Assembly: GCA_963847625.1 (NCBI GenBank) | Contig: CAWKAR010000027.1 | Location: 64,001-128,000 of the forward strand | Direction of reading: 5' to 3' | DNA: 64,000 nt | Source of the DNA: a candidate division FCPU426 bacterium | GTDB lineage: Bacteria; Oederibacteriota; Muellerivitia; Muellerivitales; Muellerivitaceae | Shown here: in pieces, positions 15,701 through 64,000 of the stretch | Position numbering within the stretch: position 1 is the stretch's first letter | Layout of the letters: the number at the start of each line of letters is the position of its first letter | Program-made: the position numbers and the translations under genes | Notes under the pieces: model-generated | Seen by the model: the letters and a program-made list of their open reading frames with translations, nothing else | Told to the model about the DNA's origin: nothing | The model's database searches: none

Positions 15701-16580
15701 TGCGACTTCAACTCGAACCCTCACCTGGACTAATACGCCGACCACGACTTCGACACCAACGTCCACGGATACACCGACGACCACGTCCACGCCCACGGCC
15801 ACACTAACCGGGACTCAGTCCCCGACGAACACCCCGACAATCACCCTTACCCCCACTTCTACATTTACTCTCACGAATACTCCAACCATCACCTCCACTC
15901 CTACCAACACGCCGACGGATTCTATGACTCTCACACCAACCTTTACCGCGACACAGACCTCTACATCTACTCCAAAAAATACACCAACTTCAACCTCTAC
16001 TCTAACACCCACATCGACCCCGACAACGACTCCTTCATTCACCTCAACCTATACCAATTCCACAACACCCACTCTGGCCTGGACGCCTACGTCCACTTTA
16101 ACAAATACACCCAGCCTGACGTCGACCGATGTGCCGATTCCGACTTCCTCTTCCACGCCTTCGCCAACGAATACACTGACCCCCATGCCCACAAACGCGC
16201 CAACGTCGACGTCAACACCGTCCGTGACAGAAACCCCGTTCGAAACTGCAAGCCCCAGTCCGATACAAACGGCTGTTATGACACAGACTCCGACACACCC
16301 CGGGATCCCTTCCTTAAAGATCTATCCGAATCCGGTCCTAAACGACCAGCCGTTGATCATTCTGCTTTCCATCACGTCCACTTCCGACGTGCGGGTTGAA
16401 ATCTTCACTCTAGCTTTTAGGAAGGTGAACGAACTTAACTTTTCCCAGGTGGCTCCGGGTGGCAGCGTGACGGTTCCCTTGACGGATCGCTGGAACAAGC
16501 CTCTGGCCGATGGCCTTTATTACGTGGTGATAAAAACCGGCCAGGGCAGGTCCATCGGGAAATTACTAATCTTTAGGTGA
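12780..16580 (+). CDS. Glycoside hydrolase family 8 (endoglucanase-like) + ~760-aa Thr/Pro stalk + C-terminal sorting-like domain
   Basis: [41 protein letters not shown]; likely TTG start at 12780 after AAAGGTG (ORF track starts at 12720). Confidence 0.9.
14821..15520 (+). repeat. 300-bp (100-aa) near-exact tandem duplication, about 2.3 copies
   Basis: Sequence lines at 14821, 15121 and 15421 are identical; one mismatch seen between the first two units. Confidence 0.9.
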
Positions 16581-16676
16581 AATCGAACCATCGATTTGAG
16601 CCCTACAGGCCTTCCAGAGGGCCTTCGCCGGGTTGAAAACCTTGGCGCAAGCAAAGTCCTATGATAGTCTCAACCC

Positions 16677-18470: not shown

Positions 18471-18546
18471 AATAAACGTAGCTAAATCGCACTTCATGTT
18501 TTTGAAAGTATTTTTCACTTGTTTATGAGCCATACGAACACCCCCG

Positions 18547-18750
18547 CCGATTAAACGAGAAACTTCCTTGAACTATAACGGTCCAATGCCAAATGAAATA
18601 AAAAGCAATTAAAATGGGATTAAAAAGATAGTAACTTTGGCCCGGGATAGTGATATTTCCAATAACAGGGGTATATTTACTTTAATTAGGAATAAAAACC
18701 CTTTCATGGGGGGCGAGCTATACCCCTTTTTGCATTGGTTGGAGAGTATC
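18547..18750 (+). promoter_or_regulatory. Duplicated promoter/leader with 21-bp-spaced direct repeats (candidate AraC operator)
   Basis: TGAAATAAAA at 18594 and TGGGATTAAAA at 18615; region is homologous to 25294-25497. Confidence 0.6.
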
Positions 18751-24700: not shown

Positions 24701-25230
24701 ATTTGAACAATACTGTTGTGCCGGGGAATGGGAGTGTAACATTCGAGATTACGGCCGCGATTTCAACCACGGCCATTGGGACAGACACGGACTCATTCAG
24801 CGTAACGGGTATAACCGGGACCAACGGGCAGTCCACCCATTCCAACGGGTTACCAGTCCAAGGGGCGGTGGTTACGATCGAGGCTCCAACCGCGACGGCG
24901 ACGTCCACATATAAGAGGACATCCTCCCCCACGGCGACTCCGGTTGGGAAAAATGGAGTGGTTGTATATCCAAATCCGGTGAGCGGCCCGGGCCCGGTGA
25001 CGATCCAGGTTAATTTGACCCAAAAGGAATCGCTTGTTCGGGTGGAGATCTTCACGCTGGCCTTCCGGAAGGTGAATGAGATCGATCTGACCCAAGTGCC
25101 GGCGGGGACTACCAGTGTTTCCGTCCCCATGACGGACAGGGGCGGAAAACCTCTGGCCGACGGCCTTTATTACGTGGTTGTCCAAATGCCCCAGGGGCGT
25201 CTCGTCACCAAATTGCTTGTCTTGAGATGA
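18751..25230 (+). CDS. Clan GH-A glycoside hydrolase (GH51/GH79-like) + DUF11-like domain + ~1200-aa Thr stalk + Ig-like domain + sorting-like CTD
   Basis: IRWPGGS, YWEVGNE (acid/base), IIHNYP, MSEYN (nucleophile); probable GTG start at 18751 after GGAGAG (ORF track starts at 18637). Confidence 0.8.
21061..22140 (+). repeat. 540-bp (180-aa) exact tandem duplication
   Basis: 21061-21600 matches 21601-22140 line for line. Confidence 0.9.
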
Positions 25231-25293
25231 TCTTTGGGCATGAAACATCTAGCGACTTTTGAAAAATAAAGTTCATTTAATAAGAGCGCCCTT

Positions 25294-25497
25294 CCGATTA
25301 AACGAGAAACTACCTTGAACTATAATGGCCTACGGTTAAATGAAATAAAAAGCAATTATAATGATGTTAAAAAGACAGTAACTTTGACCCAGGATTGTGA
25401 TAATTTCGATAACAGGGGTATATTTACTGTAAATAACAATAAAAACCCTTTCATGGGGGGCGGGTTAAACCCCTTTTTGCATTGGTTGGAGAGTATC
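25294..25497 (+). promoter_or_regulatory. Second copy of the duplicated GH promoter/leader
   Basis: TGAAATAAAA at 25341 and TGATGTTAAAA at 25362; shares GGGGTATATTTACT and GGAGAGTATCGTG with the first copy. Confidence 0.6.
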
Positions 25498-28400
25498 GTG
25501 ACCGATATTCGTAAAGAAAATTCAAAACGTTTTTTTATCTGTCTTTTGTTATGGAACCGGTTTCTTAATTACTTTTCCAAGGTTATTTTACCTTCCATTC
25601 TTATTGTCATCACCCCCTTATGGTCTTCCGTAGCTTGGGCGACAACCTCCACCGTCACGGTCAATGCCGCCAGCGTGAGTGTCGTCCTCCCCAACACCCT
25701 ATTCGGGCAGAACTACGCTGTTTACGACGGATCGGCCACCGTCGGCAAGACCGCCTACATCCAGGCGGTCTCAGCCATGGGAGCCTACCAACTGCGTTAT
25801 CCAGGCGGAGGCTATGGCGACATGATCAACTGGAACAATGTTACCTGCCAGGCTTCCTACATGCCCACCATAGCCCAGAGCGTTTCCTTTGCCAGTGCGG
25901 CGGGAGTAAAACTTCAACCTATTGTGAATTACGCCGGCTATTGGTGCGGCGCATCAAACGGCCATACTGCTGCAGTGAGCCTGGCGTCGGCCTGGGTGAC
26001 TTATATGAATAAGAGTCCTGCCGCCATGCCCACCACCTACTGGGAGGTTGGAAACGAAACCTTCGTCAGCGGGGAGGAAGGATACACGTCGGATGACAAC
26101 ACGGGAGGAGCCACTTACGGCAATAATTTCGTGGATTTCTACAACTCGATGAAGGCCGTGGATTCCACTATCAAAATCGGAGCTCAGTGCCAGTTCGACC
26201 ATGCGGGCTTTTCCCAGGGCGCCGTCACAGCCATCAAGGCCAAAGGCGTCACAATGGATTTCATCATTTCGCACTCCTACCCAATTTATAACGCCACCGA
26301 CACTCAGGCGGAGGATTACACCCTCCTCACCACCGACGTAACCGCAGCCACCACTCAAACCACCGCCTTGAACAACATTCTCTCCGCAGCGGGTTATCCT
26401 ACCACCATCCCCAAGTGGATGACCGAATACCGCTCCAGCGTGCCCGAAAACAAGGCCGTCGAATGGGTGGACGCCATGTGGGTGTCCCAGTACCTCCTGG
26501 AACTCGGCCGGAACGGCTGGCAGGGCGCCAACATTTGGGACATCAAGAATGGATTCAACACCAGCTATTCATCCGATTACGGACTCCTGCGCGGCGGGAC
26601 CAGCAATTCGGACGACACGCCCATCGACACGCCTCGCCCGACCTGGTATGTTTATCCATTCCTTTCGAGGGTATTCGGCAGGAATCTGGTGAACAGCAGC
26701 TCCAGCTCGGCCAGCTTGGGATGCTGGTCATCCACGGATACATCCGGAAATTTGACCATTTTCATGGTCAATAACGATTTTTCAAACGCCTGCACCGCGA
26801 CAGTCTCCATCAGCGGCTTCTCACCCGGCACCGCCGGTTCAATATGGACCCTTCAACCGGGTGGAACCACGAAATCCAGTGGAACCACTCCCATTGAACA
26901 ACAACGCGGCGTGACCATTAATGGGACCTTTAACCCCGCAGTCTCCTCCATCCCAGGCACCGGTAATTCCATCACCACCGGCGCCAGCTTCAACGTGACG
27001 GTTCCAATCGCCTCCATGGTGCTGGTGAAAGTCCCCTCGGGCGGTTCGCCTGTCCCCACCTCCACTTTTACCCGGACCTTTACTTCGACCACCACACCGA
27101 CCATGACCCCGACCAAATGCGCAGTCGTTTTCAACGGCTGTAACACGGCTACGGATAACGGAACCTGGAGTGGTACTGTCGGCACACGCACTTTCATCAC
27201 ATCCGGGTACCCGACAGGTGCCTTAACTGAGGGAACCGGACTCATGAAGGTGGCGGTGGGTGCTACCACCCTCACCTGGGATAATGCTCTCTTCAATCTT
27301 GCCGGTTTTACGCCTACTGTGTTCACTGGTTATGTCCAACTGACCCTGGACCTAAATCTGGACGCCGCAATCACCAACCTTTGGGGAAGTTACCATACTA
27401 TGCAGTTGGTCGCCGATTCTTCCACTAACAACCTCTATTCAGTGAGCATATCCTCGACACAGCCAACTCTTGTGGCCGGGCAGCAAACTTTGTCTTTTAC
27501 ATTGGACTACCCGGCGAGCATAACCTCCACAATGCCCTTATCCACCCTGTATTTCGTTTTGAACACCGGAAGCGCGGTTACGGGCATCAATATGTATGTG
27601 GATAATATACGTTTATTAGCTTCCTGCGGTGTGCCAACCGCAACACTAACCCCCACTCAAACCAATACCCCAACCATTACCCGAACAAACACGTCAACAA
27701 ACACTCCCACCTCGACGCCGACCAATACCCGGACGAACACACCGAACAATACACCGACTTATACGGCAACCAACACCTCTACGAACACTGCAACCAGCAC
27801 GTCAACCCCCACACGGACGAACACGGCCACTAATACGTACACGACCGCGCCTACGAACACGTCCACGTCGACCCCTACGGCAACCCCCACACGGACGAAC
27901 ACAGCCACTAATACGTACACGACCGCGCCGACAAATACATCCACGTCGACTCCTACGGCAACCGCAACGAGGACAAATTCGCCTACTAATACAGTCACTC
28001 CTACGTCGACGAACACGTCCGTGAATACAGCCACGAATACGGCGACCTCCACATCAACCCCGACCAGAACGAACACACCCACCAGCACACTTACAAATAC
28101 GCCGACGAATACGCCCACGAATACGGCGACCGTCACACCCATCGCAACGAGGACAAATTCGCCTACTAATACAGTCACTCCTACGTCGACGAACACGTCC
28201 GTGAATACAGCCACGAATACGGCGACCTCCACATCAACCCCGACCAGAACGAACACACTCACCAGCACACTTACAAATACGCCGACGAATACGCCCACGA
28301 ATACGGCGACCGTCACACCCACCGCAACGAGGACAAATTCGCCTACTGGTACAGTCACCCCTACGTCGACGAATACGTCCGTGAACACGCCAACGAACAC

Positions 28401-31400
28401 CTCTACGGCCACGAATACGGCGACCTCCACGTCAACCCCGACCAGGACGAACACACCCACCAGTACACTTACAAATACGCCGACGAATACGCCCATTTAC
28501 ACGTCAACGAACACCAATACGCCAACGAATACCTCTACTTCCACGTCAACCCCGACCAGGACGAACACAACGACCAACACACTTACAAATACACTGACGA
28601 ATACGCCCACGAATACGGCAACCCTCACGTCAACCCCAACCAGGACGAACTCGCCGACCGTTACGATCACAAGCACGTCGACGAATACGTCCATTTACAC
28701 GTCAACGAACACCAATACGCCCACGAATACCTCTACTTCCACATCAACCCCAACCAGAACGAACACACCCACCAGCACACTTACAAATACGCCGACGAAT
28801 ACGCCCACGAATACGGCGACCTCCTCATCAACCCCGACCAGAACGAATTCGCCGACCGTTACGGTCACGAGTACGTCGACGAATACGTCCATTTACACGT
28901 CAACGAACACCTCTACGGCCACGAATACGGCGACCTCCACGTCAACCCCGACTAGGACGAACACACCCACCAGCACACTTACAAATACGCCGACGAATAC
29001 GCCCACGAATACGGCGACCTCCTCATCAACCCCGACCAGAACGAATTCGCCGACCGTTACGATCACAAGTACGCCGACGAATACGTCCATTTACACGTCA
29101 ACGAACACCAATACGCCCACGAATACCTCTACTTCCACGTCAACCCCGACCAGGACGAACACACCGACCAACACACTTACAAATACACTGACGAACACGC
29201 CCACGAATACGGCGACTCCCACACCAACCCCAACCAGGACGAACACGCCGACCGTTACGATCACAAGTACGCCGACGAATACGTCCCTTTACACGCCAAC
29301 GAACACCAATACACCTACGAATACGGCGACCTCCACATCAACTCCGACCAGAACGAATTCGCCGACCGTTACGGTCACGAGTACGTCGACGAATACGTCC
29401 ATTTACACGTCAACGAATACCAATACGCCCACGAATACGGCGACTCTCACACCAACCCCGACCAGAACGAACACGCCGACCGTTACGGTCACGAGTACGT
29501 CGACGAATACGTCCATTTACACGTCAACGAATACCAATACGCCCACGAACACGGCGACGAGCACTTCCACCAGCACACGGACGAACACGCTCACCAGCAC
29601 GGCCACGAATACGCCGACAAATACACCCACGAATACGACGACCGCGACGAATACCCTAACCCGGACATCCACGCCCACGCTGACGAATACTCCCACGAAC
29701 ACACCGACGAATACGCCCACAAATACGCCGACGAATACTTTAACCAGCACCCGGACGCCCACGCCGACGAATACACCTACGCTGACGATAACGTTCACGG
29801 CGACCGATACCAGCACAGGGACTCAGTCGCCCACGCCCACTGCGACTAATACGCCCACGGTCACCCATACGCCTACAAACACTAATACTCTAACCCAGAC
29901 GAACACACCGACGCGGACCTCTACATCCACAGCCACACCCACGCCAACGAGTACATCCACGAATACTCCTACGAACACCCCGACGCGGACATTCACGTCC
30001 ACAGCCACAAATACGCCGACGAATACGTCTGTTAACACGGCCACGGCCACACCCACGCCAACGAATACGTCCGTTAACACATCCACAAACACACCGACGA
30101 GCACGTTGACGCGGACCTCCACGCCCACAGCCACACCCACGCTGACGAATACGCCCGTTAACACGCTTACTAACACCTCTACACCCACGCTGACGTACAC
30201 GCCCACGAACACGCCGACGAATACGTCCACGAACACACCCACGAACACTCCGACACGGACCTCCACAGCCACAAACACGCCGACGAATACGCCCACGAAC
30301 ACGCCGACGAATACTTTGACCAACACCAGGACGAATACGCCAACAGACACACCGACAATGACGATCACCAATACGCCGACGGTGACGTCCACGATCACCA
30401 ATACCAGCACAGGGACTCAGTCGCCCACACCCACGGTGACCAATACGCCCACGGTCACTAATACGCCGACCCATACCGCGACACCCACACTGACGAGTAC
30501 GGCTACCTCTACGCCGACACTGACGGTGACGCTCACATCGACACGGACGCCGACATCCACGTCTACAAACACACCGACCAACACGGCAACGAATACGCCA
30601 ACGTCGACCGGAACAAGCACAGCAACGAGGACGCCGACTTCCACATCCACATCGACTCCGACGATAACGCTGACGCCGACCCCGACAGTGACAATTACGC
30701 CGACGAACACGCCGACGCGGACCTCCACGTCCACAGCCACAAACATGCCGACGAATACACCCACCAATACGCCGACGAATACTTTAACCAGCACCAGGAC
30801 TCCCACGCCGACGAATACACCTACGCCGACGGTAACGTCCACGGCGACCGATACCAGCACAGGGACTCAGTCGCCCACGCCCACGGCGACTAATACGCCC
30901 ACGGTCACCAATACACCGACCTATACAGCGACATCCACGGCGACGAGTACGCCCACGGTCACCAATACGCCGACCCGCACACCTACCAACACGCCCACGC
31001 CCACAAACACCAATACCCCGACCCCGACTTACACCTCCACGCCGACGCCCACCCCAACGCCGACTAACACAGCTACTTCCACCCCGACGCCCACGAGCAC
31101 GTCCACGAATGTTCCCACGAATACGTTTACTCCGACATCCACCCCCACTCCGACTGTCACGTCAACCCCGACTCCAACACCTGTGACCTTGCAAGTTTCG
31201 CAGGGTACTTCACCCCCTCCAAATACGAGCCAGGTACCCGGGGCATCGGCTGTGACGGTGCAACAGGTTCTAGTGTCAAATCCAAGCAACAACCCGGTGA
31301 CACTCACCAGCCTCGTTTTGACGGATACGAGTACGTCGGGGAATCCTTCCACGGACATCACATCGGTGACGGTGTATGAGAATGGGGTGTCGGTTACCAG

Positions 31401-52581: not shown

Positions 52582-53636
52582 GCCGAATTCACGGAGTAAG
52601 TGCAACACTTCGCCGGAAGACTTCCGCCGGAGTTTTAAAGCCCAAACATTTCCTGGGTCTGTTATTGAGCCATCTTTCTATGGCCCTGAATTTTTTGAAG
52701 GACACTTTAGCAAGATCAGTCTTTTTAGGCAAATGGCGGCGGACAAGACCGATAGTATTTTCCACAGTACCTTTTTCCCAACTGTGGAAAGGGGCGCAGA
52801 AAAAGGATTTTGTACCAAGCACGTGGTTGGTTTCCAAGTGGTTGGTGTTTTCGGTTCCGTTGTCATAGGTCAGACTCAAGCGGGCGTCTTGAGGGAAGCG
52901 GCATAAAGCGCGGTTGAGGCTATGACTCATTTGGCGAGCGGTCTTTCGTTTGAGCTTTCCCAACTTGGAAAAACGGCTTTGACGCTCGACGAGAGCCCGC
53001 ATAGCCACTTTACTCTGACGAGAGACCATGGTGTCGGTTTCCCAATGGCCGAATTGCTTGCGTTGATTGGCGATCTCGGAGCGCTTATCGATGGAAACAC
53101 GGCCTGGGATATGGTTTTTGGCGTGCTTACGGCTGTGGCCAAATGAGAATCGTCGCCGGTGGTGTCGAACTAGGCAAGGAATCAGCTCAGTGGCTTCAGC
53201 GTAAACCCACTGATAGATAGCTTCAGGACCAATGGTTTGCTTAGGCCGTAGGTGACCTAATCGACCTGAAATGAGTTCTGGAGACCAGCCTCGTTTCAAT
53301 TGACGACGGACGTAGGCACGAATTCGTTTTGTTTTCAGGCGTAAACGGCGTGCTCGTTGTTGGTTGCGGTCAACATACCGTTGATGGGCTCGATGAGAAA
53401 GATAATAACCAGAACGGATAGGGGGAGCATTGCGCTTGAGTTCCCTGGAGAGGGTGGAAGGAGACCTCTTCAAGGCGCGTGAAATTGCTCGAAGGCTAAG
53501 ACCCTTTCCTTTCAAGACGGATAAATGATCTCTTTCTTCAACGCTTAAATGCTTGTATTTCTTTTTCATAGCCGCATATCCTATTCATGCGGCCTTCTTC
53601 AGACACTAAGTGTTGCACTTACTTATGGAACTCGGG
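52582..53636 (-). mobile_element. IS30-family insertion sequence (1055 bp)
   Basis: Imperfect IRs CCGAATTCACGGAGTAAGTGCAACACTT / AAGTGTTGCACTTACTTATGGAACTCGG; ATG duplicated at 52579-52581 and 53637-53639. Confidence 0.92.
52589..53569 (-). CDS. IS30-family transposase
   Basis: HLSVEER HTH, WSPELISG, GHWETDT, TYDNGTE, SWEKGTVEN, LNNRPRKCLGFKTP. Confidence 0.95.
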   Translation of the reverse strand: MKKKYKHLSVEERDHLSVLKGKGLSLRAISRALKRSPSTLSRELKRNAPPIRSGYYLSHRAHQRYVDRNQQRARRLRLKTKRIRAYVRRQLKRGWSPELISGRLGHLRPKQTIGPEAIYQWVYAEATELIPCLVRHHRRRFSFGHSRKHAKNHIPGRVSIDKRSEIANQRKQFGHWETDTMVSRQSKVAMRALVERQSRFSKLGKLKRKTARQMSHSLNRALCRFPQDARLSLTYDNGTENTNHLETNHVLGTKSFFCAPFHSWEKGTVENTIGLVRRHLPKKTDLAKVSFKKFRAIERWLNNRPRKCLGFKTPAEVFRRSVALTP

Positions 53637-54011
53637 ATGCGTATTCCTCGACCCTTTTCTCATTTACCAACAAACCCTATCTCGTGCGCAGTAATTTTCC
53701 AGCATTGATGGTCATGCTGGCTGTTACCACCGCTTTATACCTTGTCCCTAACATCAAAGACTCCTATGCCGAAAGTGTATAATGACTGATATGGGCGGCA
53801 TAGTAAGATTCGGGTTTTGGCGCGAGATATTGAGGTGGGCCTAAAATGTAATATGTTAGGCTAGGCCCTTTTGTTTTTCTAAGTGACGAATGATAGCTTG
53901 ACCCAATTTTTTCAGGGTTCCCGAGTTCCGGAGGTTCCCGGGTTCCGGAGTTCCCGGGCCTGTCCCGAAGGGCTCACCACAGGCTCTGTCGAAGGATTCC
54001 CGCAGTTCGTC

Positions 54012-54158
54012 TGGCTTACCGCTCTTACCGGCTTACCGGGCTTACCGACTTACCGCCCTTACCAGTTTACTGGCTTACCGCCTGGCTTACTGACTTACCG
54101 GCTTACCGCCCTTACCGACTTACTGGCTTACCGCCTTACCGGGCTTACCGCTCTTACC
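54012..54158 (+). repeat. Degenerate 8-9-bp CTTACCG tandem repeat
   Basis: More than 15 copies of CTTAC(C/T)G with short variable linkers. Confidence 0.85.
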
Positions 54159-54230
54159 ACGAACCCAGTGCAGAAAGCCCGGAACCCAGTGCTGGGGGCC
54201 GCGAACCCAGTTCCAAGAGCTGGGTAACCT

Positions 54231-54605
54231 GGGATAACCCAGCGGCATAGGAGATAATCCAGCGGCATTCGAGGGATAACCCAGCGGCATAGGAGATAAT
54301 CCAGCGGCATTCGAGGGTTAACCCAGCGGCATAGGAGATAATCCAGCGGCATTTGAGGGTTAACCCAGCGGCATGGGGGGATAACCCAGCGGCATGGGAG
54401 ATAATCCAGCGGCATTAGGGGGATAACCCAGCGGCATGGGAGATAATCCAGCGGCATTAGGGGATAACCCGGCGGCATGGGAGATAATCCAGCGGCATTT
54501 AGGGGATAACCCAGCGGCATGGGAGATAATCCAGCGGCATTCGAGGGTTAACCCAGCGGCATAGGGGGATAATCCAGCGGCATTAGGGGGATAACCCAGC
54601 GGCAT
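54231..54605 (+). repeat. Minisatellite, 18 copies of a 20-22-bp unit with core TAA(C/T)CCAGCGGCAT
   Basis: Counted 18 cores; units mostly alternate 20 and 22 bp (42-bp dimer) with variable G-runs. Confidence 0.9.
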
Positions 54606-54869
54606 GGGCCGGAGGTCCGTAGGCACAGGCCGGTAATCCTGTAGGCACAGGCCGGGGGTCCTGGAAAGCCTGCTGATGTTCCCGTTTTCATAGGCCAACC
54701 AAGTCATGTAAAAATGGGGTTTCAAATCCCCGGGCAACAGGCCCCTTTTCCAAAGGGAGGCCAAAACCCTCAGGCCCAATAGATGGTTACGCCCCGACCG
54801 GGCCGCTTTTAGGATCCTCGGATCGCTGGGCATATTTTGCCGTCTTGTTTTATGGGTTTTAGGTTTCAT
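54360..54869 (-). CDS. Hypothetical protein or pseudogene running into the repeat array; partial Fis-like HTH
   Basis: GAGGCG RBS before ATG; unique N-terminal ~70 aa ending ENGNISRLSRTPGL, then repeat-encoded sequence. Confidence 0.35.
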   Translation of the reverse strand: MKPKTHKTRRQNMPSDPRILKAARSGRNHLLGLRVLASLWKRGLLPGDLKPHFYMTWLAYENGNISRLSRTPGLCLQDYRPVPTDLRPMPLGYPPNAAGLSPYAAGLTLECRWIISHAAGLSPKCRWIISHAAGLSPNAAGLSPMPLGYPPNAAGLSPMPLGYPPMPLG

Positions 54870-55077
54870 AAATCACGCCTCATTTTTTCTTTTTAAAACC
54901 CCCTTGATGAGGGTAAGGGTATTCACGGGTTATTCCAAGCGAAAATCCGGGGTTGGGCGCCAAGCGCCCCATGGCTGTTTTATCCCGGTGGTCTCTTTCC
55001 GCGAACATATGTGATAGACTAAAAAAAATCACGAATTTTTCGGGGGTTCACCCATTAAAAATCTCTCGTTTTTTTTC

Positions 55078-57105
55078 ATGTCCTTTCTAGCTTCCGCCGT
55101 TCTTTTGGGGCAAACGATCGGGTTCACGGTTGATCCCACGCAAAACAACAGCCCCATTTCCCCCTATAGTTACGGTTCCAACAGCCCCGTCCCCCTGGTG
55201 AATAATATTCCCCTCTACCGCCAGGGCGGCAACCGGCTAACGGCCTATAACTGGGAAAACAACGCCTCCAACGCGGGCATGGATTACGGCCCCAACCACG
55301 AGGACTGGTACCTGCTCGCCGTCATGGGGCTCCCGCAAAACGGCGGCCAAATGCCCGCCACGGTCTTAACCGATTTTATCCTGGGCAATAACGCCGTCAC
55401 GGCCGCTTCCCTGGTCACCCTGCAAATGGCGGGTTACGTCTCGGCCGACGGCGACTGCAACTGCGACGTGACCGTCACCGGGGCGGCGGACGCCAGCGGA
55501 ACCTATTGGAAGGCGGTGAGTTTTTCCGGAGGCCCCACATCGGGGGCCCCGGTCACCACCGACCACGTTGTCTACATGGACGAGGAAATGTATTACCTTT
55601 TGGGCGCCGTGGGGGGGGCCTCCTCGGGCGGGGCCAAGCTTTACGACCTGGATAATGAGCCGGGCCTTTGGAAAAGCACCCATCCCCTGGTGCATCCGGC
55701 CCAGGCCGCCTGCACCGAAGTGGCCGGGAAAGGGGCCAGCCTGGCCGCGGTGATCACTTCCATCGATCCCAACGCCCAAGTCATGGGGCCTGTTTGTTAT
55801 GGCTGGCAGGAATACGTGAACAACCAAAGCGCGCCGGACGTTAATCCCACCTTGAATAGCTACGCTAGCAACGCCAATAAAGTCGCCTACCTGGATTACT
55901 ACCTGGCCGCGATGAGCTCCGCGTCGAGCGCCGCGGGCCGGAGGCTTTTGCATTACCTGGACCTGCACTGGTACCCGGAAGCCACGGGTTTGGATGGAAC
56001 CAACGCCGTGCGCATCACCAATGACGACGTCAGCCAGGGGGTGGCCATCGCCCGCATGCAGGCGCCCCGGTCCCTTTGGGACCCCAGTTACGTTGAATCC
56101 AGCTGGATTACCGCCAATTCCCTCGGCGGCAAGCCGATCACCCTCATCCCCCGGCTCCAGGCGGCGGTGGCCCAATACTATCCAGGCACCCAGCTTTCCA
56201 TATCGGAGTACCAGTACGGGTCCGGCGAGGATATTTCGGGCGGGATCGCCCAGGCGGACGCGCTGGGTATCTTCGGTAAATACGGCGTGGCGGGCTGCCG
56301 GTGGGACGACGGCACGAGCGACCTTTATGTGGCGGCCGCCTACAACCTGTACTTGAATTACGATGGGAAGGGTTCCCGGTTCGGGGATACGTCCATCCTG
56401 GCCGGCTCCTCCGGCGCCAACGCGGTATCCTTGACTTCCGTTTATGCCGCCAAGGACAGCGCCCATCCCAACCGGATCAACGTCATTCTTTTGAACAAGG
56501 ACTACGGCGCCAATCACGCGGCGGCGGTGACCCTGAATAACCTCGGCATGACCCAAATTTCATCCATCACGTCCTACCGTTTCGACTCAACCGCCTCGAC
56601 CGCCTACAACCCGGCCGCGCCCGCCTTTACCGCCGGCACTTTTTCGGACACCCTCCCGTTCCGCTCGGCCACCCTTTACGAGATTATCCTGGCCCAGGCC
56701 CCCACCGCCACGCCAACCAACAGCCCCACGCCTTGCACGGACGGTTCGGGGAACACCTGCACTTTTACCCCCACCCCCACGGCCACGGACACCCCCACCC
56801 CCACCGCCACTCCCAACCCCAATAACGACATCGCCTGGCCAAACCCCTGGAACGGGAGCGCCCCCCTGGCCTTTTACCACACGCTGAACCAGGCGGCGGA
56901 TTCGGTGCGCCTAAAACTTTACACCGTGGCGTTCCGAAAAGTTTACGAGAACGACCATTTGGCGGCTACGGCGGGCCAGCACCTTTACACCCTGGGATGG
57001 AACCAACTCGGCAACATCGCCAACGGGCTTTACTACCTGGTGGTGGAGGAAGTCAGGGGCGGGCGGGAAACCCACAAGGTCATGAAGCTTTTGATCCTCC
57101 GTTGA
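55078..57105 (+). CDS. Glycoside hydrolase family 44 (endoglucanase/xyloglucanase) + short Thr/Pro linker + sorting-like CTD
   Basis: RQGGNRLTAYNWENNASNAG, LDNEPGLW..TH..VHP, DLHWYPEA, ISEYQYG, QADALGIFG; C-terminus WPNP...ANGLYY...KLLILR. Confidence 0.9.
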   Translation: MSFLASAVLLGQTIGFTVDPTQNNSPISPYSYGSNSPVPLVNNIPLYRQGGNRLTAYNWENNASNAGMDYGPNHEDWYLLAVMGLPQNGGQMPATVLTDFILGNNAVTAASLVTLQMAGYVSADGDCNCDVTVTGAADASGTYWKAVSFSGGPTSGAPVTTDHVVYMDEEMYYLLGAVGGASSGGAKLYDLDNEPGLWKSTHPLVHPAQAACTEVAGKGASLAAVITSIDPNAQVMGPVCYGWQEYVNNQSAPDVNPTLNSYASNANKVAYLDYYLAAMSSASSAAGRRLLHYLDLHWYPEATGLDGTNAVRITNDDVSQGVAIARMQAPRSLWDPSYVESSWITANSLGGKPITLIPRLQAAVAQYYPGTQLSISEYQYGSGEDISGGIAQADALGIFGKYGVAGCRWDDGTSDLYVAAAYNLYLNYDGKGSRFGDTSILAGSSGANAVSLTSVYAAKDSAHPNRINVILLNKDYGANHAAAVTLNNLGMTQISSITSYRFDSTASTAYNPAAPAFTAGTFSDTLPFRSATLYEIILAQAPTATPTNSPTPCTDGSGNTCTFTPTPTATDTPTPTATPNPNNDIAWPNPWNGSAPLAFYHTLNQAADSVRLKLYTVAFRKVYENDHLAATAGQHLYTLGWNQLGNIANGLYYLVVEEVRGGRETHKVMKLLILR

Positions 57106-57234
57106 AGGCTCCGGTTTTAATCCCCCTGGCCTTTTTCTGTGATCCCATGCCGGTTTAATTACCGGCAGGTAAAGGGTGCCACCCATTGCGCCCAGGGGCG
57201 GAAACATAAGTGCGTCCCCAGGGCAACCGTTCCA

Positions 57235-57337
57235 ATTTCCGGGTTTTTAAATGGATTACTTTCGATTATTCCAAAGAGCTAAAATAAAGCCGTATTAATA
57301 GTTTCGATAGAGGGCGGTTCGAATCCCATTCGGCCAG
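57235..57337 (+). repeat. Repeat A, copy 1 (103 bp), ending in a tRNA-like 3' fragment and the GGCCAG core
   Basis: 4 mismatches versus 59339-59441; ends GGTTCGAATCCCATTCGGCCAG. Confidence 0.9.
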
Positions 57338-57355
57338 GGTTCAAAGGAAAATTTT

Positions 57356-58378
57356 ATGCGAACAAAATTAATTATTTTTCTATTAATTATACTATTTAAT
57401 AATTCGGCAGAAGCATTGGCCTGGTTAGTACCCTTATTGAACAAGAATGAAAAACTGTCGGAAAAATTTTTTATTTATAAACCCTTTTTTGATATCAAAA
57501 AAATTTCTATTAATTGTATTGAAAATGACGATATTTTGGATTTATTGGAGGAAGTAAAGGGTGTGAGTACGAATAGTTACAAGTCAATAAACGATTTAGA
57601 AAAGTTAGGATTTAAACTAAATATAGTTATAAGCCACTATGACAAAGAATGGTTAAAAGAAGCTTATGGAAATGAGTTTTTACAAAATCATTATGGGAAT
57701 AATTGGTTAGAAAAAAGTGATGATGATTTACCAGTTACAGAGGTTCACTATTTAAATGAAATTGTAATGGATGATTACAAAAGATTTGTTCTAGTTTGTT
57801 CGGGCGAAACATATTTATATTTAATAGATACTCAATCAAAACCGATTAAGACTTGGCTTCTTGATGAAAATTGCACATGTCCAAATAAAATCGATAAGGT
57901 TCTTAAACGAAATGAAGAAAGTTTTAGATTTATTTACCGAGAATTTCCTGGCAATGGCCGTTTGGCAGGCGCTCCAAGGGTAGAGGTGAAAGACATAGAT
58001 TTTAATAAAAAAATACTGGCTCAAATAAAAGGCAATTATTTAGAGGATATTAATAAGGACGGAAATCCAGAAGTCATAATTTCCAATGAACTTGATTTCA
58101 ATATTAATTGGTATTGGATATTTAGATATGAAAACGGGGAATGGGTTGAGAGTAGTAATAGATATCCAGAATATTACAAAAGCGCCGTTAAAAATATTTT
58201 GGAAGAACAATATGAAAGTACAAAAAAAACATATATTGAATTGAAAAATAACTCTCATTCAAAATCAGTTTCTAGTCTTGAATACCGGATGAAAGAATTA
58301 TTCGCTTTAATTGAAATTGCCAAATTTGGCGGAATTTCTGAGTATTTAAAGAAATTTCATGCAGGGGAGACGTTTTAA
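57356..58378 (+). CDS. AT-rich hypothetical secreted protein (cassette 1 cargo)
   Basis: 340-aa ORF; signal-like N-terminus; DINKDGNPEVII loop. Confidence 0.75.
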   Translation: MRTKLIIFLLIILFNNSAEALAWLVPLLNKNEKLSEKFFIYKPFFDIKKISINCIENDDILDLLEEVKGVSTNSYKSINDLEKLGFKLNIVISHYDKEWLKEAYGNEFLQNHYGNNWLEKSDDDLPVTEVHYLNEIVMDDYKRFVLVCSGETYLYLIDTQSKPIKTWLLDENCTCPNKIDKVLKRNEESFRFIYREFPGNGRLAGAPRVEVKDIDFNKKILAQIKGNYLEDINKDGNPEVIISNELDFNINWYWIFRYENGEWVESSNRYPEYYKSAVKNILEEQYESTKKTYIELKNNSHSKSVSSLEYRMKELFALIEIAKFGGISEYLKKFHAGETF

Positions 58379-58529
58379 TAGTTGGAAAAAGGGAATTCAG
58401 GGGGAACTTTAGGGGAACCCTTCGAGGGCCTCAGGGCAAGCTTTTCGGGAGTAAACGGGGAAAGTAGAGCCCCTCACACCGCAGCGAGTGGCAGGGCTTC
58501 GAGAGCCTCAGGGCAGGCTATTAAAGAGT

Positions 58530-58601
58530 GGGAAAGCCCTGTATTAGTTGAGTTCTAAATGCATCCATGAAGGGCAGCCAATAAAACCTAGTCTCCCTTT
58601 C
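58530..58601 (+). repeat. Repeat B|Y junction, copy 1
   Basis: GGGAAAGCCCTGTATTAGTTGAGTTCTAAATGCATCCATGAAGGGCAG|CCAATAAAACCTAGTCTCCCTTTC. Confidence 0.85.
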
Positions 58602-58706
58602 GCTCACGGGAAATGTGATCTATCGGGCCATGTGGTTGATGCTCTCATGATGGCACTGCCACACGCTGCGGTGCGTGGGGCCGTGGGGTTATAAAAAACG
58701 GAGCAA

Positions 58707-58991
58707 TCAAGAATGGTGGGGGATCCGGCCGTCGGCGACCTTGTGAAGCACGCTGGCGATGAAGGTTTGGTAGGGCATGCCCTCCTCCATGGCCTTGAGT
58801 TGAATGGCCTTCAGGTCGTATTCGGACAGGCGAATGTTGATGCGGCGGTTTTTCTTGAGGGTTTCCCGCGCGTAAGCCTCGTATTTTTTCCTCTCGCCCG
58901 GCAGGTTTTTAACGCTTTTGAACTTGCCCGCCTCATAGGAGCCCAGAAGGTCCTGTTCTTCCCAGGTTAACTTATCTTTCACGGGTTTCAC
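58707..58991 (-). CDS. Antitoxin, CopG/RHH-like
   Basis: RRINIRLSEYDLKAIQLKAMEEGMPYQTFIASVLHK; overlaps the end of the toxin gene. Confidence 0.8.
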   Translation of the reverse strand: MKPVKDKLTWEEQDLLGSYEAGKFKSVKNLPGERKKYEAYARETLKKNRRINIRLSEYDLKAIQLKAMEEGMPYQTFIASVLHKVADGRIPHHS

Positions 58992-59262
58992 CTCTTTTCA
59001 AGTATTTCTGCGCTGCTTTCCGGCTCGGGATGACCGTGATCAACCTGATGCCGTCCCCTTTTTCCTCGAAGGGAACCAAAAAGACATACTCAAAAGCTTT
59101 TACCACCATGACTTTTTGCCCTGGATATTTGCTTGGATTGGGATGGACGAGGACGTCCAACAAACCCCCGGATTGAACGCTCCAAAGAATGGCTTCGAAA
59201 GAGATGTTCCTTTCCCGGATGAGCTTTTCGTTTTTCAGGGGATCCCAGCTGAAAAAGGGCAT
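58972..59262 (-). CDS. BrnT-like type II toxin
   Basis: FSWDPLKNEKLIRERNISFE, HPNPSKYPGQ, YVFLVPFEE, LITVIPSRKA. Confidence 0.82.
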   Translation of the reverse strand: MPFFSWDPLKNEKLIRERNISFEAILWSVQSGGLLDVLVHPNPSKYPGQKVMVVKAFEYVFLVPFEEKGDGIRLITVIPSRKAAQKYLKRGETRER

Positions 59263-59338
59263 GAACCAATAATAGCCTAATGTGTGCCTTTTGGCAACAG
59301 GGCCTAAGCTTGAATGGCCCGTGCAAAAAAGGGGTCGG

Positions 59339-59455
59339 ATTTCCGGGTTTTTAAATGGAATACTTTCGATTATTCCAAAGAGCTAAAATAAAGCCATATT
59401 AATAGTTTCGATAGAGGGTGGTTCGAATCCCATCCGGCCAGAGTTCTAGCTGTCC
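59339..59455 (+). repeat. Repeat A, copy 2, plus X end (A|X junction)
   Basis: ...GGTTCGAATCCCATCCGGCCAG|AGTTCTAGCTGTCC. Confidence 0.9.
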
Positions 59456-59515
59456 GCCAAGGGGAGGGAAAGAAAGAAAATTCTGATTTTTTTGGATGAT
59501 TTTGGAGAATCAAAT

Positions 59516-60163
59516 ATGCAAAAAAACCACCTGAATATTATTTATATGATTGTAGGATTCTTTTTGGTTCTGGCCGTTGCTTCTTTTATTTCGCGCGACA
59601 ATAAAAATAGGTTTTCCCCCCAAATTGATAATATGCCTGAAAGCACCCCAGATATTTTCGGGGTCAATTTTGATAAACGCTACGGTTTACCGGATGGTGT
59701 TGGCCTTAGTGCGCTTTCACCTGAATTAGCAGATGATGTACCTTCCTCTGAACCATTAACAATGGTGACCCTAAAAAACGGGAAGGCTGCTTTAGCAGAC
59801 AAAGAGGGGAAAATCGTCTTAAAAACCAATTACGATTGGATTGGAAAATTCCATGACGGCTTGGCATTGGTGAAGATAGAAGGTGATGAGGATTATGGTG
59901 GCCCCCATCCAAATTCTTGGGGATATATCAACGTGAAAGGTAAAGTCGTTATCCCTTTTCAATTTAATCAAGCATATCCTTTTTCAGAAGGCTTGGCGCC
60001 AATTCAGGATAAACATGGTAGGTATGGTTTTACTGATATACACGGAAAAATGGTTATTCAACCACAATATGACGATTTCATGGAATTCTCAGATGGTCAG
60101 AACCAGGTTAAGCTAAATAAAGTTTGGATATGGATAAACAAAAAAGGTGAAAGAATCCAATAA
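59516..60163 (+). CDS. WG-repeat (KWG Leptospira-type) membrane-anchored protein (cassette 2 cargo)
   Basis: N-terminal TM; FHDGLALV, WGYINVKGKVVIPFQF..AYPFSEGLA, YGFTDIHGKMVIQPQYD. Confidence 0.88.
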   Translation: MQKNHLNIIYMIVGFFLVLAVASFISRDNKNRFSPQIDNMPESTPDIFGVNFDKRYGLPDGVGLSALSPELADDVPSSEPLTMVTLKNGKAALADKEGKIVLKTNYDWIGKFHDGLALVKIEGDEDYGGPHPNSWGYINVKGKVVIPFQFNQAYPFSEGLAPIQDKHGRYGFTDIHGKMVIQPQYDDFMEFSDGQNQVKLNKVWIWINKKGERIQ

Positions 60164-60314
60164 TAATTAAATCAATGATTGATTTTTGATTTGGCCATGA
60201 TGTGGAGCCATTTCAAAAGTGGGAAAAGGGGAATTTGGGGGAACTTTCGTGGAGCCCCTCGCACCGCAGCGAGTGGCAGGGCTTCGAGAGCCTCAGGGCA
60301 GGCTATTAAAGAAT

Positions 60315-60376
60315 GGGAAACCTCTATATTAGTTGAGTTCTAAATGTGTCCATGAAGGCCAGGGCTCTAGCTGTCC
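60315..60376 (+). repeat. Repeat B|X junction (tandem cassette junction)
   Basis: GGGAAACCTCTATATTAGTTGAGTTCTAAATGTGTCCATGAAGGCCAG|GGCTCTAGCTGTCC. Confidence 0.85.
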
Positions 60377-60446
60377 ACTATGGGGACCCGGAGTGGACAA
60401 GGTGGAAGAAATGCAAAAAGCAATGGCCAAAAGGGAGTGACAATAA

Positions 60447-60701
60447 ATGAGTGTTCAACTCCGAATAAAAAATAAAAAAAAATCCTTTCATCAATGGTTT
60501 TTAGCCGGCTTTATAATTACCCCGGCATGGGGATTTTTTGTTCATAAAATAGCCAATTTTTATTTAGATGATCTCCCAAAAGGTGGTTTCCAGAGGGCTA
60601 AAGAACTCGGAATAGAAATCGCAATCTGGGGTCCATTTGCAGTTTGGTTAGTCCTCTTCTTCATACATCGTAAAAATAAACTACCTAAAAATGGTGGTTA
60701 A
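60447..60701 (+). CDS. Small two-TM membrane protein (cassette 3 cargo)
   Basis: AGGGAG RBS; two hydrophobic segments. Confidence 0.55.
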   Translation: MSVQLRIKNKKKSFHQWFLAGFIITPAWGFFVHKIANFYLDDLPKGGFQRAKELGIEIAIWGPFAVWLVLFFIHRKNKLPKNGG

Positions 60702-61769
60702 TTAGTTTGTTGGTTATTGGTTGTCCATTCCGGGGAGGCATTTCATAACAGAAGAAATTTGAAAAAAAGATAAGAGATTTTGACTTCTCCTTAAGTTTAT
60801 AAATGCTTTTAAGTAATTACGCAAATAAAGGCCGGAAATGGGAATTTTCTTTTTATTTCTTTTCGTATTAATGATTACCCTTTTACCTGTTGTCGGCGCT
60901 TTTTTGTCTATTTCTTGCAAGAAAAAATTATTTATCATTTTGGGTTATGTATTAACCGCGATTATTTTTGGTGGTCTTATTAAGTTGTTAGGGGGTATTT
61001 CAGACAAGGCCGGAATAGTTCTTTCGTTTGGTTTCATCTTATTAATTTTTTACGGGTTTTATTTAAAAGAGAAATATAAAAAATTTAAGTATTTAGGCAT
61101 TTTATTGATTGTCTTGAGTTGGATCATTGGGTCTTTCAATATCATTGGCATTGTTATATTTACTCCCGAAAATCCAAATATATTAAATTTGGCCAATAAA
61201 CCCACGGTCGGAACAATTAAAGTAAAAAACATTAACCCATTTTTTAAATCATATCCCCCCGAAAAAAGAGAATTATTAGAAAAATATTTATCCCGAAGTA
61301 AAGATTGGCAATTAACCCGGTTGGGATCAATGAACCCACTTGGCGGGGCTTTGGTTGCTTTAAAACGTGTTTCTGGAAACCCGATGAATTTAGATGTTCT
61401 GGATAATTTTGGATATACGTTTAGAACAGGCTTGAGAGATGGTGAACCTTTCGAAGAAAAAACAATGGTTTGCTTTGAGCCGATAAATTTTAACGATTCA
61501 TGGCGAAAGGATGGATTTGTAAATAATTGTTATGATTCGATTTTTAAAATTAACCAATACACTGGATTCAAGGGGGAAGAGTACGAATATTTCATTTTAA
61601 AGTTTAATAATTTTTCCTTTGAGGCTTTTGAGCGGGGAAGTGGTATAGGATATATTCAATCCGCATTGGATAATTTTAAAGAAATCTTAGAAAAAGTATC
61701 AAAAGTTTCTAATATAAACGATAAAGAAATAGAAAATTCTTTAATATCTGATGAATCAATAAAAATTTT

Positions 61770-63091
61770 CACTAGTGTCCGGTTAACGATCTTCCAAAAA
61801 CTCTAAAAGCCTTTGCCTGTAATCTGTTCCATGCCTAAACGACCTTTTTCGATTTGAACTGAATCGTCCTGCCTCACCATCCTTTCATCCAAGAAAGGGT
61901 GGTTCCTTATGAATGCCGGACGTACTGTTTTTGCTCAGTTGATGGACTTCTTTCCCCGCCATGAGTTTCAGAAATGCGTTGATCGCTACCACGGCAACCG
62001 TAGGATCCGCAGCTTCTCCTGTCTCGATCAATTCCTCTGCATGGTTTTCGCCCAGCTTACCTACCGGGAAGGTCTCCGCGACATTGAAGCCTGTCTGGGT
62101 TCCTTCAAAAACAAACTTTACCACGTAGGTATCCGTGGACGGGTCGCCAGGGCTACACTGGCTGACGCCAACCAAAAGCGAGATTGGCGTATCTACGCCG
62201 ACTTCGCCCAAGTCCTGATCAAAACCGCCCAATCCCTTTACACCAATGACGATTTTAGCGTGGACTTGAACCAAGCCGCCTATGCCTTGGACTCCACCAT
62301 CATCGACCTATGCCTATCGCTCTTTCCTTGGGCGCGCTTTCGGTCCACGAAATCAGGCGTCAAACTACACACCCTTCTCAACCTCAGAAGCAACATTCCC
62401 GCTTTTGCCTGTGTTTCCAACGCTTCCGTGCATGACGTACATTTGCTGGACATCCTACCCTTGGAACCAGGCTCCTTCTACATGCTCGACCGTGGCTACA
62501 CGGATTTCAGCAGATTGAACCGCCTCATCGAAAACCTTTCCTTCTTTGTCATACGTGCCAAGTCCAATTTTAACTTCTATCGGCGATATTCCGCCCCTGT
62601 GAATTTATCTCTGGGCCTTCGGTTCGACCAGACTGTCGTCTTGGCCGATCCGAATAAGTTCAAGGAATATCCTCATCCCCTACGCCGCATCGGCTTCGTT
62701 GACCCCATCACCCGTAAGCGCTTGGTTTTTCTTACCAATAACTTCGTCTTACCAGCTTTGACCATCTGTCAACTCTACAAATCTAGATGGCAAGTCGAAC
62801 TCTTCTTCAAGTGGATCAAACAGCATCTTCGCATCAAAGCTTTCTTTGGCACATCATCCAATGCCGTCAAAACCCAAATTTGGATCGCTATTTGCGTGTA
62901 TGTCTTAGTCGCCATCGTCAAGAAAAAACTCGGCCTTCAATTAAGCCTTTACACAATCCTACAGATTTTGAGCGTCACCCTTTTTGAGAAAACCCCTATA
63001 CTACAAGCGTTTTCAGACGACGCCTGCATTTCAGAAAACACCAACACTGAAAACCAATTGTCTTTACTGCGTTTTTAACCGGACACTTGTG
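61770..63091 (+). mobile_element. IS4-family insertion sequence (1322 bp)
   Basis: 17-bp IRs CACTAGTGTCCGGTTAA / TTAACCGGACACTTGTG; 9-bp TSD AAAAATTTT at 61761-61769 and 63092-63100. Confidence 0.95.
61909..63078 (+). CDS. IS4-family transposase (DUF4372 + DDE)
   Basis: QFLCMVFAQLTYREGLRDI, LDSTIIDLC, GVKLHTLL, DRGY, YKSRWQVELFFKWIKQHL. Confidence 0.95.
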   Translation: MNAGRTVFAQLMDFFPRHEFQKCVDRYHGNRRIRSFSCLDQFLCMVFAQLTYREGLRDIEACLGSFKNKLYHVGIRGRVARATLADANQKRDWRIYADFAQVLIKTAQSLYTNDDFSVDLNQAAYALDSTIIDLCLSLFPWARFRSTKSGVKLHTLLNLRSNIPAFACVSNASVHDVHLLDILPLEPGSFYMLDRGYTDFSRLNRLIENLSFFVIRAKSNFNFYRRYSAPVNLSLGLRFDQTVVLADPNKFKEYPHPLRRIGFVDPITRKRLVFLTNNFVLPALTICQLYKSRWQVELFFKWIKQHLRIKAFFGTSSNAVKTQIWIAICVYVLVAIVKKKLGLQLSLYTILQILSVTLFEKTPILQAFSDDACISENTNTENQLSLLRF

Positions 63092-63669
63092 AAAAATTTT
63101 AAATAAACCTACCATCAAAATAATTCAGGCATTCCCTCCGGGAAGATTTATTGTTTCAGGTTATATAAATCCTGGGAAAGAAGGCTACATAAAATTACGA
63201 GTTACTAATTCTACCGACGGAAAACCCGCTGAAATTTCTAGTCGTAGCGACTTTGGAATTAGGATCGAATATGTCGGATGGTCAAAGAATATAAATGAAA
63301 AATATTATTATGAAACCGGCATCGAAATAAAAAACTATAAACAACCTTTAATGTTTAACGTAATGTTTTTTCCAACAGATGGAACGGCTGAAACGTCACT
63401 TGTTCAGATGAAATATACATTTGACCAAAAAAATATGACTTGGACCAAGAAAAAAATAATGCAGAAATATTAAAAAAATAAGGCGACATATCAATGGTTA
63501 ATTCAAAGCAAGTTTGTATAGAGTTGGGAAAATTTCCTTGATATATAACCTTCTTATTTGCCACTAATGGTGGGTTGCTCTTAATTTTATTTAGCAAATT
63601 CTAGGTGAAATGTTCGCAAACCCTTGAATCCGGAGAGCCGCCTTTAAAAGTGGAATGGGGAAACTATGC

Positions 63670-63741
63670 GGGAAACCCCTGTATTAGAAAAGTTCTAAAT
63701 GTGTCCATGAAGGCCAGCCACTAAAACCTAGTCTCCCTTTC
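63670..63741 (+). repeat. Repeat B|Y junction, copy 2
   Basis: GGGAAACCCCTGTATTAGAAAAGTTCTAAATGTGTCCATGAAGGCCAG|CCACTAAAACCTAGTCTCCCTTTC. Confidence 0.85.
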
Positions 63742-63759
63742 AGGGAGCTGGTTTTTTTT
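63728..63759 (+). terminator. Intrinsic terminator following CCA
   Basis: CTCCCT-TTC-AGGGAG hairpin followed by CTGG and a T8 run. Confidence 0.7.
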
Positions 63760-63789
63760 ATTTGAAGTCACACCTGTCCAAAATAGGCT

Positions 63790-63887
63790 TTTGCCACGGA
63801 TGCATGGGATACATGGGATTTAAAAAACATAAGTTTAAAGCCTTTTTTTATGTTCTATCCGAGTGCATCCCCTGAATCCGTGGCAAA
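63790..63887. repeat. REP-like long inverted repeat
   Basis: TTTGCCACGGATGCATGGGATACATGGGAT ... ATCCGAGTGCATCCCCTGAATCCGTGGCAAA. Confidence 0.75.
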
Positions 63888-64000
63888 GGACTTGGTTTTG
63901 CTTAACGCCTTTTAGAATTAAAAACTTCTGATTTAATTTATCTTTGTTCCCTGGTTTTTGTTTAATTTGGACGGCAATGATTTGAAGTCAAGGATTTGAA

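Follow-up and report, generated by a model that had tools for sequence, protein, structure and literature searches.

Orphan tRNA-like ends as probable half att sites of a serine-recombinase family with single-gene cassette arrays in a candidate division FCPU426 bacterium

A 64,000-nucleotide stretch of DNA (the window) from a candidate division FCPU426 bacterium carries, between positions 57235 and 63990, a set of short repeats termed here A, B, X and Y. A, the B ends and X are probably half att sites of one serine-recombinase family, with A and Y forming an orphan junction, X and B the ends of small carriers, and the carriers being loaded with cassettes. In the course of events that we propose, full-length large serine recombinases (LSRs) of the family would place their islands at the final bases of tRNA genes, each LSR gene crossing its own site on the opposite strand; at tRNA-Gln the crossover would fall in the CA just before G-CCA, the exact base being our reconstruction. 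A-Y would be the right-hand junction of such an island, an element end joined to a tRNA-Gln trailer, which became detached from its tRNA and was duplicated. A small carrier without a recombinase, X...B, bounded by CA-type ends, may then have inserted into each copy, and its internal GA-centre site was presumably loaded with single genes by the family's cassette system: 28-bp palindromes (13+GA+13) in same-strand arrays, and a short serine recombinase lacking the zinc ribbon and coiled coil. Sequence homologies, the island ends of relatives, array geometry, cassette exchange, the position of the enzyme gene and a tree are the observed basis of this reading, and from them we infer the order of events and the acting enzyme.

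Along the window, the features run in the order A1, gene, B and Y; a toxin-antitoxin pair; and A2, X, gene, B, X, gene, a further gene broken by an IS4-family element, B and Y. All except the toxin-antitoxin pair lie on the forward strand. A1 (57235-57337) is a ~100-nt element end, with a conserved head and a tRNA-3′-like putative half att site centred on the CA at 57335-57336. It is followed by a cargo gene for a 340-aa protein without a Pfam match (57356-58378, 29% GC), by a degenerate GA-centre half site (58358-58369) tentatively assigned by its position and motif, and by B1 (58369-58577), which holds G-rich repeats and small hairpin repeats and ends in a CA-centre half site (58575-58576). 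Y1 (58578-58601) closes this unit. The pair that separates the two units (58707-59262, reverse strand) encodes a BrnT-like protein and a CopG antitoxin, with PF04365 below and PF12441 at the cut-off. A2 (59339-59441, CA centre 59439-59440) is identical to A1 at 99 of 103 nucleotides over the whole of A. Behind it, X1 (59442-59465) covers a step of 25 bp between the CA centre and a left half site with a GA centre (59464-59465). A cassette gene for a 223-aa WG-repeat protein follows (59492-60163), then a degenerate GA half site with B2 (60194-60362, CA centre 60360-60361) and X2 (60363-60399), which contains a full palindromic cassette site of 13+2+13 bp at 60372-60399. Next come a cassette gene of 84 aa without a Pfam match (60447-60701), a GA-centre half site (60722-60737) and the broken cassette gene (60838-63473), in which the IS4-family element (transposase 61909-63078) is flanked by an 8-nt direct repeat at 61762-61769 and 63093-63100. 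The array ends with a GA-type half site and B3 (63612-63717, CA centre 63715-63716) and with Y2 (63718-63769), which later received a ~220-bp palindromic insert (63760-63990) flanked by 11-nt direct repeats. The GA-type half site before B3 shares its family with a site found where an LSR gene of contig C57 (same assembly) ends. No recombinase gene was found among the ten window ORFs scanned, and no LSR lies inside the window.

Two other regions of the window are also rich in repeats. Very long Thr/Pro-rich coding repeats at 14000-31000 dominate the repeat listing, and short tandem repeats with spurious ORFs occupy 53880-54870 and 52583-53635, beside an IS30-type element. Small hairpin repeats (58464-58515, 58653-58681 and 60254-60300) are common throughout the genome, as at C3:143226, C13:6855 and C63:81577, and several start exactly at the GA centre of cassette sites.

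The original prediction described the 22 bases at 59420-59441 as a tRNA-Gln-like 3′ end. The bases are as it gave them, and the further copy of A terminates at 57337. The T-loop and the tRNA spacing proved exact; the T-stem does not pair in the tRNA register, where its five positions give two Watson-Crick pairs and one G-U, and A has neither the cloverleaf nor the paired T-arm of a tRNA gene or tDNA fragment. The 5′ half of the tRNA is absent, as predicted: ARAGORN called 0 genes in the window, and an Rfam scan of 56900-64000 returned no tRNA match at E ≤ 5 and nothing near a gathering score. The genome encodes 43 tRNAs and one tmRNA. Compared with its 43 CCA-ending genes, the A2 22-mer reached a best score of 17/22, tied among Gln(CTG), Gln(TTG) and Asn; the shared T-loop gives most of this identity, and 3′ of it only 6-7 of 11 positions match Gln or Asn. 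A tRNA-Gln ending like A had been expected, but both genomic tRNA-Gln genes terminate differently, and in the strict sense no tRNA or tmRNA with this 3′ end was found. The exact 22-mer, with one degenerate position, had 0 matches in genome_contigs and in metagenome_contigs, and its four 2-mismatch matches in 30 family genomes all fell in unrelated sequence without tRNA or A context. A literal copy of tRNA-Gln was rejected on the unpaired T-stem, the equal scores to Gln and Asn and the lack of an exact match.

Could A still be the displaced 3′ fragment of a real tRNA-Gln, left behind by an ordinary tyrosine-integrase island? The exact T-loop and spacing, the tRNA-Gln trailer in Y and the many tyrosine integrases of this genome that are followed by tRNA fragments would all suit such an origin. 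But no such tRNA exists in the genome, the family or the two collections, the tyrosine-integrase fragments seen copy their tRNA closely and keep the CCA, and homologues of A adjoin serine recombinase genes. A displaced fragment is already largely refuted, and we consider it highly improbable.

It is these homologues that give A its likely identity. A can be aligned over ~100 nt with ends lying immediately next to LSR genes, both on contig C57 and in G001, a genome of the same genus, and also with orphan tRNA-Asn-like half sites of other genomes; the aligned relatives have GA centres, not CA. On C57, an LSR element of 8.2 kb comes after one such A-like end, with a second LSR behind it. G001 reproduces the layout of the A1 unit, with an orphan tRNA-Gln-like end, one gene and a B arm. 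Because A is homologous to LSR-abutting ends, and B to the ends of tRNA-Gln islands, A, B and X are read as half att sites. By its alignments, A is a tRNA-end mimic and putatively a half att site of an LSR, serving as a landing pad of a serine system. The att-like role, the insertion beside CCA and the reuse as cassette landing pads that had been proposed for these fragments fit what is seen in relatives: a sugar operon of G006 has an unoccupied orphan tRNA-like half site between two of its genes, and the matching position in G002 is filled by a gene for 185 aa closed with a second half site, a comparison of one pair between genera. The prediction left the enzyme unspecified; it is probably a serine recombinase. 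The head pattern of A occurs in its own genome only (1/31). It includes a −10-like hexamer (57280-57285) located 30 nt upstream of the half site in A and 14-28 nt upstream in 7 of 26 orphan loci examined. This hexamer of A-type heads was not listed by a sigma-70 scan, though it is conserved, and the head may act as a promoter.

The connection to tRNA-Gln was borne out by Y, a copy of the tRNA-Gln(CTG) trailer, and by B-type ends that mark insertions at genuine tRNA-Gln genes of relatives. Both Y copies open with CCA (58578, 63718), as had been noted, and are identical at 23 of 24 nt, Y1 being a truncated copy of 24 nt. The hairpin and T-run described in Y2 are also real features, with a terminator-like score and a fold z of −3.2 that 0 of 200 shuffles equalled; Y1, cut after 24 nt, has no such fold (z −0.11). 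Among 44 trailers, Y matched that of tRNA-Gln(CTG) on contig C28 with a score of 21, versus 9 for the runner-up, and 2000 shuffles reached at most 8. Y-like trailers stand behind tRNA-Gln(CTG) at 5 of 22 family loci, the own genome counted, and B ends lie ~85 nt behind it at 4 of 22. The island of G001 comprises tRNA-Gln(CTG), a convergent gene for a 510-aa LSR, with its reading frame terminating over the tRNA end, cargo and, at a distance of 10 kb, a B end that runs into CCA; a 10-nt identity block is common to the tRNA end and the B end. G009 also has a B-end unit behind tRNA-Gln(CTG), and G011 a tandem pair of them behind tRNA-Gln(TTG). This occurrence of B ends at the tRNA-Gln loci of relatives identifies B as the element-side end of tRNA-Gln inserters.

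An LSR gene overlaps its own att site at the 3′ end at tRNA-Gln(CTG) of G001 and on contigs C39 and C57 of the own genome. When the opposite strand is read by eye, the B-Y junction at 63717 gives WLAFMDTFRT, the tail type of these LSRs, and a W-L/R-P/G-type motif is present in the last 70 residues of 84 of 119 full-length LSR homologues. Tandem and integrase-less units are both present among these LSR islands. The blocks common to the A-X, B-X and B-Y junctions overlap in CCAG, which suggests a crossover at the CA that precedes G-CCA or directly beside it.

Y is also the beginning of a larger repeat. Behind the tmRNA gene and several tRNA genes comes a hairpin, then an inverted T-arm copy, a ~100-nt structured body and another, degenerate 3′ end; some of these repeats are in tandem. 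Such places include C28:157400-157725, C5:6172-6310, C13:30030-30208, C19:153800-154351, C45:135565-135720 and C60:27726-27920, and one on C4 behind tRNA-Asn. A literature search found no account of post-tRNA repeats of this kind.

A joined directly to Y is a virtual sequence here, as both A copies run into X or an X-like remnant. The join was absent from every sequence searched, including four sequencing runs whose reads, mainly on the IS4 element and repeats, did not cover the locus. Downstream of the two best GH44 homologues, synteny revealed no counterpart or empty allele of this locus, and A+X DNA gave only short, chance-level matches in 60 relatives. We nevertheless lean towards A and Y having once been contiguous. 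Within the same att family, A-Y may never have existed: A would be a cassette end or an array head with a promoter, and Y would have come with B as a ready-made B-Y. An A head does precede GA-centre sites at three other places in the genome, A-like orphans in relatives run into unrelated sequence, and B-Y is found three times in the own genome. Against this, Y closes both A copies, A and Y are each 96% alike between units that differ in cargo, and the CA centre common to A and B fits Y. A separate origin of A and Y is possible, if doubtful. For the carriers that would have entered a contiguous A-Y, a possible example is the 146-bp X...B unit at C27:262698-262843, which is empty and is closed off by a Y-like trailer. 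The B-X junction occurs in the own genome only (1/31), so the carrier idea draws on four junctions of one genome. The CA-type sites are not palindromic.

The family of 28-bp palindromes (13+GA+13) that includes X was detected in 30 of 31 family genomes, with up to 103 sites per genome, and the reversed-pattern control gave 0-1 matches. Elsewhere in the phylum, 1-2 matches each were seen in 4 of 68 genomes. From the own genome and 77 fetched regions, mostly picked for holding sites, 473 sites were called and 359 were retained at an arm complementarity of at least 8/13. Neighbouring sites within 6 kb are co-oriented in 267 of 271 pairs, at a median gap of 928 bp, and lie a median of 32 nt behind stop codons. 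Nearly all cassettes contain an ORF (275/283), the longest of which is on the site strand in 260 of 275. Homologous cassettes have unrelated neighbours on both sides in 36 of 37 pairs, the exception being a duplicate inside one contig, and a 414-bp cassette is identical between contig C61 and the genome of another genus. Site conservation ends at ~13 bp per arm, and arm triplets assort independently (73 complementary versus 72.3 expected), without arm covariation.

Integrons, the textbook gene-cassette system, depend on a tyrosine integrase and on folded attC sites, of which core boxes are a feature. Same-strand arrays of exchangeable single-gene cassettes are common to integrons and the arrays described here. 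An integron or CALIN identity was rejected all the same: TIGR02249, the IntI model, was above its cut-off in 0 of 6 genomes tested, attC core boxes occur in 8 of 359 sites and 6 in shuffles (no enrichment), and the arms are not kept complementary as in a folded single strand.

An origin of the palindromes as terminators or REP-like hairpins that a Y1 (RAYT-type) transposase has dispersed is scarcely credible. The own genome has three Y1 transposase genes, the sites do sit close behind stop codons, and group II introns directly follow some of them. Yet the arms do not covary, cassette borders fall at the site centre with neighbours exchanged, and the sites are homologous to tRNA-end att sites. 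Reverse-transcriptase genes of group II introns were noted directly behind the sites at L118 (G026:C5), L119 and L127, with three identical-length copies within one array.

The enzyme most likely to recombine the cassettes, probably on double-stranded DNA, is a short serine recombinase of 275-283 aa. Its sequences fall into 19 clusters, marked off by a drop in score from 432 to 358 bits, all of one length, with catalytic motifs kept and 74-100% identity. PF00239 and PF07508 are present in 5/5 short proteins, YVRVSS and DRLYR are invariant, and the zinc ribbon PF13408, present in the 510-aa LSR of G001, is found in 0/5. The short enzyme lacks the zinc ribbon and coiled coil that characterize large serine integrases. 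In a quick, unfinished tree of 63 rows, from which one LSR row without the motif used for trimming was left out, all 21 short rows fall into a single clade (support 100) whose sister group is the local tRNA-Gln LSRs (support 91). A PDB sequence search gave two distant matches, to the catalytic domain. Short genes stand at some array ends, convergent with the array. At 9 of 10 loci, fragments counted, a site facing the gene lies within 50 bp of its stop; at the tenth, a reverse-transcriptase gene is found where the site would be. Of the 25-bp half site bound by the Listeria integrase, 13 bp are contacted by the recombinase domain, and the zinc ribbon touches positions 16-24 (PMC3783163); direction in large serine integrases is imposed by their coiled coil (PMC5499577). 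The 13-bp arms, non-palindromic centre and free exchange seen here fit an enzyme stripped of both modules.

The intact short gene was found in 5 of 31 genomes, with fragments in two more, and sites in 30 of 31. Its absence from most site-bearing genomes speaks for arrays that are mere tandem accretions by full-length LSRs, the short recombinase being a passenger or decayed form. Full-length LSRs do stack elements at such sites, and integrase-less island accretion is described in Dehalococcoides (PMC3146451). Accretion is nonetheless unlikely: the short form is constant in length with its catalytic motifs kept over 19 clusters of 74-100% identity, site conservation ends ~13 bp into each arm, and full-length LSRs are likewise found in few genomes. 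A back-translated search for the short recombinase returned six loci, three of them outside the family (L136-L138), as individual occurrences and not as a map of its range. The short gene of the own genome is located at C61:35485-36315. Its neighbours (region C61:33100-36315) and those at L130, among them an antirestriction-type ORF, have what we take to be a plasmid-like look, and the array may lie on a larger mobile element.

There is also a wider reading of the cassette system, which we favour slightly. An equivalent of the integron may have evolved within this family from a tRNA-targeting large serine integrase, whose loss of the zinc ribbon and coiled coil would have yielded a direction-free enzyme, symmetric 28-bp sites and the shuffling of cassettes among many arrays per genome. 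tRNA-mimicking pads (A) and tiny carriers (X...B) would then seed arrays away from tRNA genes by bridging CA- and GA-type sites. An integron-like outcome was apparently reached here by serine chemistry, and attC-based tools are not expected to see these cassette sites. The locus connects cassette sites with tRNA-end integrases, which makes the origin traceable. A naturally occurring serine recombinase of such minimal build, with sites of 28 bp, would offer a test of the model in which the coiled coil alone sets direction, and could be turned into a compact tool for genome engineering. In annotation, a tRNA-like scrap that lacks any cognate tRNA can prove to be half of a serine att site. The literature search, in which subscription journals were thinly covered, found no account of a short serine recombinase with cassette arrays, so a prior description is possible; within the same coverage, none was found of LSR elements at tRNA-Gln ends.

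The genome holds other integration-related features. At least eight related tyrosine integrases are spread over contigs C3, C4, C16, C30, C36, C52, C56 and C60, and mostly precede 3′ fragments of different tRNAs, including Phe; ARAGORN found no tRNA-Phe gene in the assembly. The contig end at C13:177000-184732 has ORFs whose style seems to depart from that of the remaining genome, together with a XerD-like fragment, and is possibly foreign.

Several known systems resemble parts of this one. Integrons and CALINs (10.1101/2024.07.02.601686) likewise have same-strand cassettes of one or two genes, toxin-antitoxin cassettes, exchange between arrays and many arrays without an enzyme; unlike them, the arrays here have no IntI, no attC boxes and no arm covariation, and their serine recombinase is convergent with the array. 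Islander tDNA-fragment islands and tycheposons share tRNA-end islands, tandem insertion and scattered partial-tRNA scars, but mostly use tyrosine integrases and duplicate the tRNA end exactly, whereas A is an inexact fragment (PMC4383910, 10.1101/2020.12.28.424599). Serine integrases were then not known to target tRNA genes, according to the Islander report (PMC4383910). The integrases of the Listeria phages LI and A118 have the same catalytic and recombinase domains, a central non-palindromic dinucleotide and, like the full-length form here, 25-bp half sites; the short form differs in having no zinc ribbon and no direction-imposing coiled coil (PMC3783163, PMC5499577). The ssrA-specific islands of Dehalococcoides, with the serine integrase DsiB, are likened to SCC/Ccr elements in their published description, and match the present islands in a large serine recombinase gene that overlaps its att site at the 3′ end, in insertion at RNA-gene ends, in tandem islands and in integrase-less islands that retain att sites (PMC3146451). 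DsiB targets the tmRNA T-loop, whereas tRNA-Gln or tRNA-Asn is entered here beside the CCA. Relative to those islands, the system presented here has landing pads orphaned from their tRNA, units that are one-gene cassettes of ~0.3-3 kb and minis of 85-150 bp, and, in addition, a short recombinase with symmetric 28-bp sites (PMC3146451).
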